Shown: positions 8,051 to 21,216 of the stretch, piece by piece
How positions within the stretch are numbered: the stretch's first letter is position 1
Layout: every line of letters starts with the position of its first letter
IMG/VR virus record: IMGVR_UViG_3300009709_000001
Location: 32,001-96,000 of that record
Origin: a virus
Lineage: Duplodnaviria > Heunggongvirae > Uroviricota > Caudoviricetes
Length of the DNA stretch: 64,000 bases
Reading direction: 5' to 3' (one strand)
Position numbers and translations under genes: made by a program
Notes under the pieces: model-generated
Seen by the model: the letters and a program-made list of their open reading frames with translations, nothing else
The model's database searches: none
What the model was told of the DNA's origin: nothing

Positions 8051-8311
8051 TCAGTATTTCTTATCTTTATGCCAATGTCCGCTCTGGATCATATCCTCAA
8101 CTTGGCGTTCCCAACGTTTACGAGCTTGTTTCTTCATACGTTGTCGTTCGACTGCAGGCTTTTCATAGGCCATTCTATCCTTAACTTCTTTAAGGATACC
8201 AGAGTCTTGGACTTTCTTGCTAAATGTACGGAGCGCGCGGCCAAAGTCGTCGTTTCTAACTTCGACTGTCATCCCTCTGTGCTTTTTACCGTCTCTATTC
8301 TTGTTACTCAT
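8051..8311 (-). CDS. rpsU: ribosomal protein bS21
   Basis: VEVRNDDFGRALRTFSKKVQDSGILKEVKDRMAYEKP; start re-called at ATG 8311, coupled to the clpX stop. Confidence 0.9.
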   Translation of the reverse strand: MSNKNRDGKKHRGMTVEVRNDDFGRALRTFSKKVQDSGILKEVKDRMAYEKPAVERQRMKKQARKRWERQVEDMIQSGHWHKDKKY

Positions 8312-9524
8312 TATTTGCTCGTTTTGCTTTATATACATATTTGGTTGTTCCAGTTGCGTCAACGAAAATCTTGCTCACGCCTTCTTTAGCTAATCGTGGC
8401 AGAATGAATTGTATAGCTTGAAGATCTCTTTCAAGTACCGAACGTAATCCTCGAGCACCAATCTTCTGTTTGATGCATTCACCTGCAACATTCAGTAGGT
8501 ATTTATCATCAAACTCCAATGTAATGCCTTCGTATTTGAACAATGCTTGGAATTGGCTAACAATGCTATTCTTTGGTTCTTTGAGGATGCGCACCAACAT
8601 ATCGTTAGTTAGATCATCAAACACTACCGTTACTGGATGACGACCTACAAATTCCGGAATTAGACCGTATTTGATAAAGTCCTCAGAATTGGCTGTTTTA
8701 ACTGTTTCGGAAAAGGATTTATTTGCTTGAATAGAAGCACCTAGTCCGATACTTGTCTTGTTACGTGTCTTCCTGATAATTTCATCGAGCCCAACAAACG
8801 CACCACTCGAAATGAATAATACATCCTTTGTATCGAAGGTAACATCATTGTATCCGTCTTCGATTTTAACAACTGTACCTTCGATGAGTTTTAGAAGTGC
8901 TTGCTGAACACCTTCCCCGGATACATCTCGGGAGACTGTCGAAGACTCGTTCTTCTTGCTCTTCTTATCGATTTCGTCGATAAAGATGATTCCGTGTTGC
9001 GCACGTTCAATATCGTCGTCAGCATTTTCGATTAGACGCTTAATCAAATTTTCTACGTCTTCACCGACATACCCGGATTCGGTTAATGATGTCGCATCAG
9101 CAATCACAAAAGGTAAATCGAATAGCTTTGCAATTGTTCTAACAGTTAGTGTCTTACCACTACCACTAGAACCTACCATAAGCATATTCGATTTATCGAT
9201 TTCGGTTTTAGATTTGTTATGAATTCTCTTATAGTGATTATATACCGCAACAGAGATGGCAACTTTTGCACTATCTTGTCCGATAATATGTTCGTCAAGA
9301 TGTGCTTTGATTTGTTCCGGAGTTAAGATCTTTTCTTTCTTTTTCTTAACCGTTTTAGTTTCTTCGTCAGTGTGAATGATTTTGTGTGTTACATCGACAC
9401 ATTCATTGCAGATATAAATGTTCTGACCATTTATTACGGGACCCTCAATCATTTGTTCAACTTGATGGCGACCCTTCTCGCAGAATGAGCAACTGATTAT
9501 CTTCTTGATTTCTTTTTCTTCCAT
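8304..9524 (-). CDS. clpX: ClpX AAA+ unfoldase
   Basis: CSFC/CNEC zinc domain; GSSGSGKT, GYVGEDVE, IDEIDK, RDVSGEGVQQALLK, GARGLR. Confidence 0.96.
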   Translation of the reverse strand: MEEKEIKKIISCSFCEKGRHQVEQMIEGPVINGQNIYICNECVDVTHKIIHTDEETKTVKKKKEKILTPEQIKAHLDEHIIGQDSAKVAISVAVYNHYKRIHNKSKTEIDKSNMLMVGSSGSGKTLTVRTIAKLFDLPFVIADATSLTESGYVGEDVENLIKRLIENADDDIERAQHGIIFIDEIDKKSKKNESSTVSRDVSGEGVQQALLKLIEGTVVKIEDGYNDVTFDTKDVLFISSGAFVGLDEIIRKTRNKTSIGLGASIQANKSFSETVKTANSEDFIKYGLIPEFVGRHPVTVVFDDLTNDMLVRILKEPKNSIVSQFQALFKYEGITLEFDDKYLLNVAGECIKQKIGARGLRSVLERDLQAIQFILPRLAKEGVSKIFVDATGTTKYVYKAKRANNE

Positions 9525-18009: not shown

Positions 18010-18035
18010 AAAAAGGCCCTTCAGGGCCCTTTTTG
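18010..18035. terminator. bidirectional terminator between convergent genes
   Basis: aaaaaggccct-tc-agggcccttttt. Confidence 0.8.
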
Positions 18036-18047
18036 TTGACCGACTGT

Positions 18048-19430
18048 TTAACGAGCCGGTTGCTTTGCGCGTTCACGCATCTCAGTGAAGTTGGTCTCGT
18101 TCATGACTGCACCATTCAGGTAGCGAGTCTTCAACAAATCTTCACCCTTCGACTCTTCCAGACGATTGGTCTGATACTCGCCATTGACGAGGTTGAGTGC
18201 TAGGCGACCCTTCTTGCTCTTCTTCATCTTCGAAGTCACAGGTTCCTTGAACACGTCGACCCACTTGCCGTTGATAAATGCTGCCGAGCACTTCATCGCA
18301 AACTCGAGCGTATCGCGATTGATCTGTTGCAGCAATGCACCACCTTGACCGAATGCAACATTGTCGGCCGAATAGCCGTTCAATTCCATCACAGTCAGGA
18401 TAGCACGGATCATCGAATGGTCGATACCGTCACCTTGGATAATGCGAACATTGTTCAGCACACGGAAGCCCTTCGAGTTGATGGTATGTCCATAGTGCTT
18501 ATCCAGGATGCGCAGGCAGTCATTCACCACTTGCACAGGATCACCGGAGTCAGGGCGCACCACAACGACTGCACCGCTGTCGATGACTTCTTGCTTCAAC
18601 TCGGTACCCCACTTTTCGCAAGCGGCGTAGATGTCGTAGCTGTCCGACACACAAGCCAGCAATGCGCCCGGCTTACCGTAGAGCTTCAGCATGTTGCGAT
18701 ACGACTCGACTTCGTTTTCGCGTCCCCAGCTGGTGACGGTGCTGTGTTCCATTGCCGGAATACTGAAGCCAACAACGTCGGCATCGTAGTATTCCATGGC
18801 AGCCATCAGGCCGGAAACAGTGTCAGTGCCCATGAAGTTGAGCAAGTGTGCCATACCGCCGAGTGCAGCACTTTCCAGGCTGGACACACCGCGTGCACCG
18901 AAGTCGTGGAGCTTGAAGTCAATCAGCAACGGGTCGCCATTGCGTTCCAGGAATTCAGCGATGATAGTCTTGCTGTGATGGCTGTTGCTGGCAACCGTAG
19001 TCGGATACCAAATTGCGCGGAGCAATGCAGTTTCCAAGAAGCTTGTCAACCACCAGCACTTCGGATCAGTATTTACGATCGTGACCAGAACTTGCTTCAG
19101 GCGCATCACGCTGCCTTCGTCCACGGACTTGATTTCGACAGGCAGAATGCCGCCGAGTTCATTGACGATGTAGTCCCAGCCTTCGCGATAGAACGGTTCA
19201 CCGTGTGCGGTGATGATCTTCTCGGCTTGGTCGACCATTTCCTTGGTCACAGGGGTGGAAAGATATTCGCGGATGAACGCTTGGACCCCGACGAACACGA
19301 GTTGGTCGTAGATCTTGCTACCGCGAGATTCGATATACGAATAGACGTATTCGGTGCCAGCCGGATATTGTGCGAATTGGCTGTACTTGTACGAGTCCGT
19401 ATTGAGGATGATGTTCTTTGCAAATTTCAT
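18048..19430 (-). CDS. nadV: nicotinamide phosphoribosyltransferase
   Basis: TDSYK, LHDFGARG, SIPAMEHS, VSDSYD, RPDSGDP, IQGDG, FGQGG. Confidence 0.96.
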   Translation of the reverse strand: MKFAKNIILNTDSYKYSQFAQYPAGTEYVYSYIESRGSKIYDQLVFVGVQAFIREYLSTPVTKEMVDQAEKIITAHGEPFYREGWDYIVNELGGILPVEIKSVDEGSVMRLKQVLVTIVNTDPKCWWLTSFLETALLRAIWYPTTVASNSHHSKTIIAEFLERNGDPLLIDFKLHDFGARGVSSLESAALGGMAHLLNFMGTDTVSGLMAAMEYYDADVVGFSIPAMEHSTVTSWGRENEVESYRNMLKLYGKPGALLACVSDSYDIYAACEKWGTELKQEVIDSGAVVVVRPDSGDPVQVVNDCLRILDKHYGHTINSKGFRVLNNVRIIQGDGIDHSMIRAILTVMELNGYSADNVAFGQGGALLQQINRDTLEFAMKCSAAFINGKWVDVFKEPVTSKMKKSKKGRLALNLVNGEYQTNRLEESKGEDLLKTRYLNGAVMNETNFTEMRERAKQPAR

Positions 19431-19432
19431 TT

Positions 19433-19474
19433 TGATAAACTCCTTATCATTGATGCCTAACTCTGTGCTAGGAC
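19433..19474 (-). promoter_or_regulatory. two-hairpin leader of nadV
   Basis: CCTAGC-ACAGA-GTTAGG, CATCAA, TGATAA-GGAGT-TTATCA. Confidence 0.55.
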
Positions 19475-19483
19475 TTGTGTTAA

Positions 19484-19512
19484 AGTGTAAGACAAATTCG
19501 TTTTGTTGTCAA
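19484..19512 (-). promoter_or_regulatory. sigma70-type promoter for nadV
   Basis: TTGACA-N17-TACACT. Confidence 0.7.
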
Positions 19513-19745
19513 CTTGCCTCTAATTGGCGCACTATCACTCGATCTTTGTGAATCTTCAATTTCAGTATAAGAACACAACTCTCGTCGCCCAATGCTGCAT
19601 ATCTGATTGCCCTCTTATCGTCTTCAAGTGGGCCGGAGCTAGCCATATAATTGAAATCTTTGAAACCACAGCTTTCGAGAATTTCTTCGAATTTTTCGAA
19701 CCATTTCGGTGGATCAAGTTCGGCTGTAATTACATACCTTTTCAT
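19509..19745 (-). CDS. hypothetical protein
   Basis: ATGA coupling; VLILKLK motif. Confidence 0.6.
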   Translation of the reverse strand: MKRYVITAELDPPKWFEKFEEILESCGFKDFNYMASSGPLEDDKRAIRYAALGDESCVLILKLKIHKDRVIVRQLEAS

Positions 19746-20068
19746 TTAATGCCAAGCGCTGCTCTTTCTGCAGGAGAAAGTTTGGCAAGACCTGCTTGCC
19801 TGAGTTCCTCCTTCTCCCTTTGTTCTTTTTCCCTCTTTCGGCGCGCATAATCTTTCGCTTCGTGCGCCTCACGCCAATTGAACAATTCGTGCTTGGTAAT
19901 GTCGGCCTCAACATAATCGAGCTGTTCGAGTGCTCCGGGACGACCACGCGCCCCTTTCGGAATCGGCTGTGCATCGAGTGCCCTTAACGAAGCACACAGG
20001 GCTGCTTCGAGGAAGGCAAACTGTTTATATAGATGATCCGATGGATCTTCATCTGTTCTGCAAGGCAT
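19742..20068 (-). CDS. hypothetical protein
   Basis: Start MPCRTDE after AAGGAG; C-terminal LAKLSPAERAALG. Confidence 0.7.
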   Translation of the reverse strand: MPCRTDEDPSDHLYKQFAFLEAALCASLRALDAQPIPKGARGRPGALEQLDYVEADITKHELFNWREAHEAKDYARRKREKEQREKEELRQAGLAKLSPAERAALGIK

Positions 20069-20078
20069 ATTCTTCTCC

Positions 20079-21125
20079 TTATTTGGCGCGACCAATCATC
20101 GTCTGGATGATACTACGATGATCCTCGAACATCACTTCGCTCATTGCGAGTGCTTCGGAAATCGTAAACCACTTGGCCTCGATCGCGTCATCTCGTGGCT
20201 TCACCTTCGGCAGCTCGGCTTCACCAGTGTTCAGCTCAATCAAATAAGCTTGGGTCAGCGTGCGACCACGAAGCGAACGATCGGGCTTGTCGAACAATTG
20301 CGTATGGGTGATACTACCTTGCAGAACTTGCGGAGGAACCTTGATGCGAGTTTCTTCGCGCAGTTCGCGCAGCATGCCTTGAATGGCAGTTTCGGTCTGA
20401 TTCAGGAAGCCACCGGGAAGTGCCCACAGACCCTTGCCGGGTGCATTCTTGCGCTTGATGAGCAGAATATGACCACCCTGGATCACGACTGCATCAGTGG
20501 TAAAGAAAGTGGGTGCATACGGTGCCGATGCCCAACGTTCCTTGTAATCCTTGATGAAATTGTATTCCTCGACCAGGAGACTATAGTCTGCGGTCTTGGC
20601 AAAATCAGTCATGAACTCAAGGGTAGTCTTCGGAATGGCGCCCAGCAGGAAGTCTGCATGCCCTTCGAAATACAGTTCGCGAATCTTGGTTGCATCGATC
20701 GGATGCGATCCGTGTTCGACAAAACCGTCCAACGGAACAAATTTCCAGGTCGGGAATGCACGCAAATACCAGCTCGACTCGTCCTTTTCGTGACCGATGA
20801 TAACAATTTCGTCATCACGGATATTCGGATAAGCAGCCTTCACGGTTGCTTGAACTTCTTGAATCCACAGATTATCGTTGTACGAGTAATCGCGAATTGG
20901 AGAAACTTGGTAGTTGGTGGGAAGATATTGCATCATCTGTTCGATAAGGAACTTGCGTTCCACGAACGTGAACGGATTCTTGATGGTGCGTGGCTGGAAA
21001 GAACTGCCAACAAGAACATGCACATTTTCGGCAAGCGCGGCGGCCTGCTTAAAGATGGACAGATGCCCGTTGTGTGCCGGTTCATAACGGCCGATGAGGA
21101 CTGCGAGTTTGTAACGCTTGGACAT
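20079..21125 (-). CDS. nadM: bifunctional NMN adenylyltransferase / Nudix ADP-ribose hydrolase
   Basis: GRYEPAHNGH, KNPFT and ATKIR; Nudix box GGFLNQTETAIQGMLRELREET; start re-called at ATG 21125. Confidence 0.93.
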   Translation of the reverse strand: MSKRYKLAVLIGRYEPAHNGHLSIFKQAAALAENVHVLVGSSFQPRTIKNPFTFVERKFLIEQMMQYLPTNYQVSPIRDYSYNDNLWIQEVQATVKAAYPNIRDDEIVIIGHEKDESSWYLRAFPTWKFVPLDGFVEHGSHPIDATKIRELYFEGHADFLLGAIPKTTLEFMTDFAKTADYSLLVEEYNFIKDYKERWASAPYAPTFFTTDAVVIQGGHILLIKRKNAPGKGLWALPGGFLNQTETAIQGMLRELREETRIKVPPQVLQGSITHTQLFDKPDRSLRGRTLTQAYLIELNTGEAELPKVKPRDDAIEAKWFTISEALAMSEVMFEDHRSIIQTMIGRAK

Positions 21126-21174
21126 AATTGGCTCCCAATTAAGTTGATGAAGTATAGAGATCGTTTCCCTATAC
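21125..21174 (-). promoter_or_regulatory. two-hairpin leader of nadM-Nudix
   Basis: GTATAGGGA-AACGA-TCTCTATAC, CATCAA, TAATTGG-GAG-CCAATTA. Confidence 0.55.
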
Positions 21175-21188
21175 ACTATTTAGCCTTT

Positions 21189-21216
21189 AGTTTAAGATAA
21201 GGCTCGCTTTTGTCAA
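21189..21216 (-). promoter_or_regulatory. sigma70-type promoter for nadM
   Basis: TTGACA-N16-TAAACT. Confidence 0.55.

Follow-up and report, generated by a model that had tools for sequence, protein, structure and literature searches.

Leader RNAs that act in cis on genes of nicotinamide adenine dinucleotide (NAD) metabolism are known from the NAD+-I (nadA motif) and NAD+-II (pnuC motif) riboswitches, and riboswitches built from two hairpins with conservation confined to the loops exist in the guanidine-II class, in which both hairpins have the same ACGR loop and kiss via its self-complementary CG. At the DNA level, NrtR-type palindromes precede nadM-nadV in other bacteria. We describe here a two-hairpin RNA leader that is present before both nadV and nadM-Nudix of a jumbo phage (IMG/VR record IMGVR_UViG_3300009709_000001). 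The stretch analysed, referred to as the window, is 64,000 nucleotides (nt) long and corresponds to bases 32001–96000 of a 385,394-bp genome that has direct terminal repeats and 43% G+C, and whose minus strand bears most genes, including these two. According to a preprint, nadV and nadM-Nudix constitute NARP2, a phage pathway that rebuilds NAD+ after NAD-depleting defences (bioRxiv 10.1101/2024.02.11.579819).

Each of the two leaders contains, in 5′ to 3′ order, a predicted promoter, a first hairpin (P1) with an A-N-N-G-A pentaloop, a G-free linker that includes CATCAA, and a second hairpin (P2) presenting the Shine-Dalgarno sequence (SD) in its loop, followed by the ATG (Table 1). The predicted fold of each leader is exactly P1 plus P2 (z = –2.7 and –3.0 relative to dinucleotide shuffles), and P1 starts 11–14 nt after the –10 hexamer, i.e. 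near the predicted 5′ end of the transcript. The nadV P1 loop is ACAGA closed by C-G, a C-ANNGA-G form that is common to close relatives of the window, and the nadM P1 loop is AACGA closed by A-U, with C instead of A at position 3. Neither leader has a U tract after P1 or P2, and they thus do not have the form of an intrinsic terminator or attenuator. P2 hairpins of the nadV type with compensated stems are also present in Ralstonia phage RsoM2USA and in IMG/VR relatives.

Table 1. Features of the nadV and nadM-Nudix locus, in window coordinates.
Feature	Position	Strand	Sequence or description	Basis
nadV P1	19456–19472	minus	CCTAGC/ACAGA/GTTAGG; 6-bp stem, one G·U pair, closing pair C-G	folding; aligned to R2
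nadV linker	19450–19455	minus	CATCAA	
nadV P2	P2 19433–19449; ATG 19430–19428	minus	TGATAA/GGAGT/TTATCA, then AA, ATG	
nadM P1	21152–21174	minus	GTATAGGGA/AACGA/TCTCTATAC; 9-bp stem, one G·U pair	folding; aligned to P1 of R1 and R2
nadM linker	21142–21151	minus	G-free, TTCATCAACT, including CATCAA at 21149–21144	
nadM P2	P2 21141–21125; ATG 21125–21123	minus	TAATTGG/GAG/CCAATTA; SD GGAG at top; ATG overlaps P2 3′ strand	
Predicted nadV promoter	19484–19512	minus	sigma-70 type, TTGACA-N17-TACACT; –35 TTGACA 19512–19507, –10 TACACT 19489–19484	
Predicted nadM promoter	21189–21216	minus	sigma-70 type, TTGACA-N16-TAAACT; –35 TTGACA 21216–21211, –10 TAAACT 21194–21189	
nadV	18048–19430	minus	nicotinamide phosphoribosyltransferase, 460 aa	Pfam NAPRTase + NAMPT_N; tblastn against phages
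nadM-Nudix	20079–21125	minus	bifunctional NMN adenylyltransferase / ADP-ribose pyrophosphatase type, 348 aa	Pfam CTP_transf_like + NUDIX
Two small ORFs between nadM and nadV	19509–20068	minus	108 aa and 78 aa; no own leader	
Terminator-like hairpin and T run	18010–18033	minus	directly 3′ of nadV	terminator reading on both strands

A search of IMG/VR with NadV returned 37 loci, with 53–84% identity apart from one outlier at 36%, and about 24 distinct loci have the two-hairpin architecture before nadV, with stems that are wholly different in sequence. Alignment of all leaders with MAFFT placed the loop of the window clade six columns out of register, and the first covariance model (R1) was therefore constructed from 14 distant nadV leaders with AUAGA loops (alignment A3), leaving out the window and its close relatives; Infernal aligned the rest. 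In A3, 89% of cells are paired, versus 25–48% with slid partners, and two-sided changes are seen in 9 of the 13 pairs. R1 ranks the nadV leader first in the window (25.6 bits) and the nadM leader second (20.5 bits), with the next match at 12.1 bits. In other loci it reveals a second copy 1–2.3 kb upstream of nadV, and the open reading frame (ORF) downstream of that copy is a NadM homologue in 17 loci. A second model, R2, was built from 39 leaders, none from the window (alignment A5; 92.8% of cells paired, two-sided changes in 13/13 pairs), and it recovers the same two leaders at 30.3 and 29.5 bits, with E ~1e-3, the next best match in the window being at 11.5 bits; the full 385,394-bp genome contains no further R2 match. 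The two-hairpin leader that the sequence-only reading had placed before both NAD genes is thus found where it was drawn, and we conclude that it is almost certainly a real, conserved, cis-acting leader RNA of nadM and nadV. Two other candidates in this genome were rejected. An R1 match at genome position 383942–383983 (17 bits) is inside a coding region and has no P1. The second candidate lies beyond the window, at genome position 278817 on the minus strand, where the hairpin CTGCGCGC-TGCAATG-GCGCGCAG and then ATCATCAACC come after a promoter-like site; it has the look of a hairpin plus CATCAA and no model match.

The anatomy of the family was determined from 147 distinct phage and bacterial copies. 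The sequence of the P1 stem is free to vary, although its closing pair is G-C in about 130 copies, and the loop is close to invariant: A1 is present in 143/146, A3 in 142/145, G4 in 145/145 and A5 in 140/145 (each 96–100%), and position 2 is U in 118 and C in 18. Conservation outside the SD amounts to only ~7 nt, all of them in the pentaloop of P1 or the pair that closes it. In P2 the loop reads GGA(G/U/A)(U/C), with the start codon at or within the 3′ strand, so that the ribosome-binding site is part of the hairpin. Both window leaders have this form, with GGAG in the P2 loop, the start codon 0–4 nt after or inside the P2 3′ strand, and a G-poor linker of 6–14 nt. The free energy of P2 is –3.6 to –4.2 kcal/mol in AT-rich phages. 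In GC-rich bacteria it is –8.3 kcal/mol, a conserved C·C mismatch or bulge holding the stability there at about –8 kcal/mol.

The 13 column pairs with the highest mutual information are precisely the 13 helix pairs, and among the 147 copies we saw no signal beyond the two helices that would indicate a pseudoknot or a loop-loop contact. Pairing of a loop with the linker was considered because UCUAU occurs in a few linkers, and was rejected together with a pseudoknot for want of mutual information beyond the helices. Kissing of P1 with P2 and dimerisation through P1 were also rejected: the AYAGA loop of P1 and the GGAGY loop of P2 are not complementary, the loop columns do not covary, and the common ACAGA variant does not have a self-complementary centre. 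G·U pairs outnumber A·C pairs (74 vs 38), which indicates that the structure forms on the sense-strand RNA. Covarying stems, and a loop conserved across carriers whose NadV is 53–84% identical to that of the window, also bear out the earlier proposal that the likeness of the two leaders reflects an RNA motif rather than a recent duplication. The same proposal had taken CATCAA to be a conserved linker, and this part must be given up: CATCAA occurs in 2 of 188 linkers, and its frequency in the window is that of chance (69 seen, 60 expected). The 188 linkers are 6–14 nt long and depleted of G (6.9%), and there is a weak tendency towards YAAC, which is about twice as frequent as in shuffles; only these two properties of the linker are kept.

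The element is specific for nadV and nadM in phages and in bacteria, which is the outcome anticipated when a covariance search was first proposed. Among the best 150 R2 matches, 83 lie before nadV, 59 before nadM and 7 before small ORFs of two families, and one more, filed as 'other', is an artefact, a nadV leader assigned in the wrong frame. A search of 80 additional viral loci yielded 132 matches, and five other large phage records have 1–3 copies each, all within the nadM/nadV cluster. At 80 bacterial nadV loci the element is present directly before nadV, and again before nadM just upstream, in Xanthomonas, Stenotrophomonas, Lysobacter, Dyella, Luteimonas and Pseudoxanthomonas; further copies occur in a Burkholderia locus (before nadM, and more weakly before nadV) and in a Methylococcaceae genome. 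The bacterial copies are GC-rich and keep the loop, as in CCGGCG-GAUAGAC-CGCCGG ... GACGCGAA-GGAGC-UUCCCGUC-AUG, and an alignment of 61 bacterial leaders (A8) has 93.9% of cells paired and two-sided changes in 12/13 pairs. R2 is too weak for GC-rich whole genomes, and a third model (R3) was therefore built from the bacterial copies. In 121 genomes of the Xanthomonas-type order R3 finds the motif in 16, with a seventeenth recognised by eye; no motif-bearing genome has more than two copies, which are 1.1 kb apart. The bacterial nadM-nadV spacer is only ~70 nt and the element makes up most of it, and in several phages the element directly follows a stop codon with no promoter in between. We conclude that the element is horizontally mobile, moving with its gene cassette in phages and Xanthomonas-type bacteria.

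Several variations were noted among the carriers. The leader-bearing small ORFs adjoin nadM or nadV and fall into a family of 106–108 aa with an HTDGCGW motif (phrog_12218) and a family of 117–118 aa (L044:1546–1866, also L023:2367, L176, L192 and L196; L159, L200 and L211); Pfam and PHROGs assign neither a function, and both families are absent from this phage. A variant class has a P1 loop of GUUGA or GCUGA (L055, L062, L068, L071, L078, L083, L100 from Variovorax, L122 and L123), and in L122 and L123 the P1 loop before nadM is ACGAA. Copies of this class are missed by R2 and R3, and their architecture is the same before nadM and nadV. RsoM2USA, the closest named phage (NadV 60% identical), has a P2 with a GGAGT loop before both genes (L001:2677–2760 and 8310–8370), and its hairpin upstream of nadM is terminator-like, with a U run following. 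Two contigs of metagenome-assembled genomes (MAGs), one of 5.6 kb labelled 'Bacillaceae' (L053) and one of 2.4 kb labelled 'Heimdallarchaeota' (L105), carry an AT-rich, phage-like leader with nadV, and are probably phage sequence mis-binned into MAGs.

We found no catalogued counterpart of the element. With Rfam 15 there is no match at the gathering score in a search of the window, nor to any family, NAD+-I and NAD+-II included, at E up to 10 in a search of the leaders, and the initial impression that the element does not resemble the NAD+ riboswitches therefore agrees with the direct comparison. At ten bacterial loci searched with E up to 1 the only Rfam matches are cobalamin riboswitches (RF00174, 94–95 bits), which are unrelated and occur in two loci from Stenotrophomonas, a few kb 3′ of nadV (L061:5372–5603 and L119:3942–4173). 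None of the papers retrieved by a full-text literature search mentions, in the passages recovered, an RNA element before nadV or nadM.

The leader is most likely a translational operator. Since P2 encloses the SD and start codon, and every cistron, even an internal one, has a copy in front of it, the element is most naturally read as controlling translation initiation, and ~7 conserved nt on a stem of free sequence are the signature of a recognition hairpin. P1 has the attributes of a sequence-specific hairpin beside a ribosome-binding site, namely a conserved loop, covarying stems and a distance of 6–14 nt from the hairpin that holds the SD. Function in very different hosts, together with movement with the cassette, suggests a reader that is universal, as a metabolite or core machinery would be, or one that the cassette itself encodes (NadM or NadV). 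We propose that the element is a conserved, uncatalogued cis-RNA that controls translation of nadM and nadV and is read by NadM-Nudix as an autogenous operator, and we put the probability of this reading, which is drawn from sequence comparisons, at roughly 0.45. Each cistron would be controlled separately by its own leader copy. P2, a weak-to-moderate hairpin whose loop has the SD and whose 3′ edge has the start codon, would limit ribosome loading, and P1 would be a generic stem presenting the near-invariant A-Y-A-G-A 6–14 G-poor nt upstream of P2 to a trans-acting reader. The most probable reader is NadM-Nudix, the product of the gene that follows one of the two leaders. Bound NadM would be expected to repress, giving autogenous feedback on the whole pathway from nicotinamide to NAD+. 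The regulatory interpretation of the sequence-only reading is thus retained insofar as there is a specific, conserved cis-RNA with the SD and start codon inside P2, but CATCAA is no longer part of the element.

The candidacy of NadM rests on comparison of genomes that have one of the two enzymes and not the other. Two genomes of the Xanthomonas-type order (G050 and G078) encode NadM and have two intact leader copies, one on nadM and one on a Band_7/SPFH gene, and no NadV is detected in either at E up to 1e-3; NadV is therefore not required for maintenance of P1. In the copy before the SPFH gene (L249:1501–2586 and L250, respectively) the SD is not the loop GGA of P2, as a separate GAGGAG follows this hairpin. 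Conversely, in five genomes that have NadV and no NadM anywhere (with a positive control for the query) P1 is gone in 5/5, and a P2-like hairpin is left in four. Alignment shows that the leaders of NadM-less genomes are still homologous, and that P1 has decayed by substitution, not deletion, with mutation of the loop. Since co-occurrence counts alone are confounded by descent, the association was examined on a NadV tree of 78 bacterial loci. Presence or absence of NadM gives six independent contrasts on this tree; P1 goes with NadM in ~5.5 of them, and the opposite is never seen (p ~0.03). The P1 loop also changes in concert in both leaders of a genome, to GUUGA in Variovorax and to a six-nt GNNGAA in RsoM2USA, which is more simply explained by a co-evolving protein reader than by a fixed metabolite. 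Of the motif-bearing records tested, G084 is the only one in which NadM was not found. Taken together, these comparisons make NadM the best candidate for the reader of P1, and they lend indirect support to the suggestion of the sequence-only reading that the Nudix enzyme may bind the leader.

Several observations weigh against this assignment. G084 has a perfect nadV leader and no NadM in its genome, although its genus has NadM in 0/41 genomes and a clear motif match in G084 only (G162 has a weak 25-bit match), so that recent transfer is likely and G084 is weak as a counter-example. The nadV P1 is ~20 nt from the end of nadM, and losses of nadM and of P1 are therefore physically linked; P1 might also come under weaker selection if the pathway changes. 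The concerted loop changes represent two or three events only, and NadM lacks a spare domain and is not known to bind RNA. Finally, both window leaders are mild outliers of the family, retaining A1, G4 and A5 of the A-Y-A-G-A consensus.

An alternative explanation is that the leader is a very small riboswitch, binding NAD+, nicotinamide mononucleotide (NMN), ADP-ribose, nicotinamide or phosphoribosyl pyrophosphate (PRPP) and thereby shifting the stability of P2. This would account for the presence of the element in many kinds of phages and in Xanthomonadales, Burkholderiales and Methylococcaceae, as expected of a universal ligand, and for retention of the motif without NadM in G084, and guanidine-II offers a precedent for the two-hairpin form. 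It is unlikely, however, given that the ~7 conserved nt outside the SD come with no internal loop, junction or pseudoknot and no covariation past the two helices, and that the two loops are not mutually complementary. Moreover, a metabolite sensor predicts neither a loop that differs by lineage (AYAGA, GUUGA, GNNGAA) nor the decay of P1 upon loss of NadM.

Recognition of the P1 loop by some other trans-acting factor, either a widespread host RNA-binding protein or RNase or a small RNA, is distinctly unlikely. Recognition hairpins typically have a conserved loop on stems that vary, whichever factor reads them, and the presence of the leader on small ORFs and on an SPFH gene shows that its targets are not strictly NAD enzymes. 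Such a factor must nonetheless be conserved across all of the hosts and yet act on just 2–3 genes per genome, and no co-occurring gene is seen besides nadM and nadV. CsrA/RsmA, which needs GGA, is a poor fit to the AUAGA/ACAGA consensus of P1; its targets would have GGA in both hairpin loops, and here it is in P2 only.

We regard as very unlikely the suggestion that the element is constitutive and has no dedicated reader, with P1 serving as 5′-end protection or a processing mark, P2 setting a fixed low rate, and both being inherited with the cassette. The position of P1 in the window, near where the transcript is predicted to begin, is consistent with this, as are SD-holding hairpins without P1 before other genes (e.g. 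L031:3341–3398) and hairpins after several other early promoters of this phage. A stabiliser, though, needs no invariant loop, many copies are operon-internal and far from any 5′ end, and the confinement of the element to nadM and nadV would be unexplained. That the inverted repeats are DNA sites for a transcription factor such as NrtR, whose palindromes precede these genes elsewhere, is in keeping with their location just downstream of the predicted promoters but is already contradicted by the covariation pattern: a protein-DNA palindrome would show the opposite of what is seen here, namely a conserved centre between arms that vary and covary. In addition, a G·U pair is needed in each of the window stems, G·U exceeds A·C, and copies occur between cistrons without promoters.

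The surrounding genes and signals are consistent with separate transcription starts for the two NAD genes. The pattern TTGACA-N16-18-TANNCT has just two matches in the window, which are the predicted nadV and nadM promoters, and that of nadV overlaps the 3′ end of the 78-aa ORF. Sites of the broader form TTGACA-N16-18-TANNNT number 53 on the minus strand and 9 on the plus strand genome-wide, and several such sites elsewhere in the genome lead into hairpins, some enclosing an SD (e.g. at genome positions 258997 and 47048). The sole terminator-like site near nadM and nadV is the one after nadV. The nadM-Nudix protein is 39–46% identical to annotated phage NadM proteins. The 108-aa and 78-aa ORFs between the two genes are probably co-transcribed with nadM; Pfam searches of the two assign no family, and the 108-aa one matches phrog_5370 (function not assigned) weakly. 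An ORF of ~107 aa with an MPCR... start (19742–20068 in the window, L031:3396–3716) is conserved between nadM and nadV in the window clade, and in L031 it is preceded by an SD-holding hairpin without P1 (L031:3341–3398, noted above).

The presence of a mobile RNA element before each gene points to an undescribed post-transcriptional layer of NAD salvage in phages and bacteria, and its length of 45–50 nt makes it directly testable. If NadM reads the leader, it would be a new example of a metabolic enzyme that also regulates by binding RNA, and if a metabolite does, the leader would be among the smallest riboswitches known. A further and doubtful suggestion is that NAD+ rebuilding is inducible, in that NadM-Nudix or the RNA senses NAD+ or its breakdown products and the translation block lifts when defences such as Thoeris, DSR or SIR2-type systems deplete NAD+. 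If so, a metabolite-gated enzyme-RNA switch over a counter-defence pathway would be common to phages and bacteria.

The element belongs to none of the families that it most resembles, i.e. NAD+-I, NAD+-II, guanidine-II, the thrS and gene 43 operators and the PyrR binding loops. The NAD+-I and NAD+-II leaders share with it a position in cis to NAD-metabolism genes, and NAD+-II also masks the SD, but the element described here has no bulged tandem domains and no pseudoknot, and its genes are nadM and nadV, not nadA and pnuC. Guanidine-II (mini-ykkC) RNAs similarly consist of two small hairpins with a variable linker and conservation confined to the loops, the second adjoining the ribosome-binding site; the two loops of our leader, in contrast, are unlike and non-complementary rather than paired, and that of P1 varies by lineage. 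NrtR controls the same genes, probably by the same feedback logic on NAD salvage, and there too a Nudix fold has been recruited for regulation, but NrtR acts on DNA palindromes at promoters, whereas the leader is a sense-strand RNA that is repeated before internal cistrons. The closest in workings are autogenous translational operators read by an enzyme or by the encoded protein, namely the E. coli thrS operator bound by ThrRS, that of gene 43 in T4 and RB69, and the PyrR binding loops (RF00515). Our element matches none of these in sequence or in Rfam and has a second hairpin with the SD in its loop, and it is gene co-occurrence alone that points to binding by NadM. What they share with it is a short, loop-specific hairpin at or near the ribosome-binding site, with stems that are variable in sequence and a copy for each regulated cistron.

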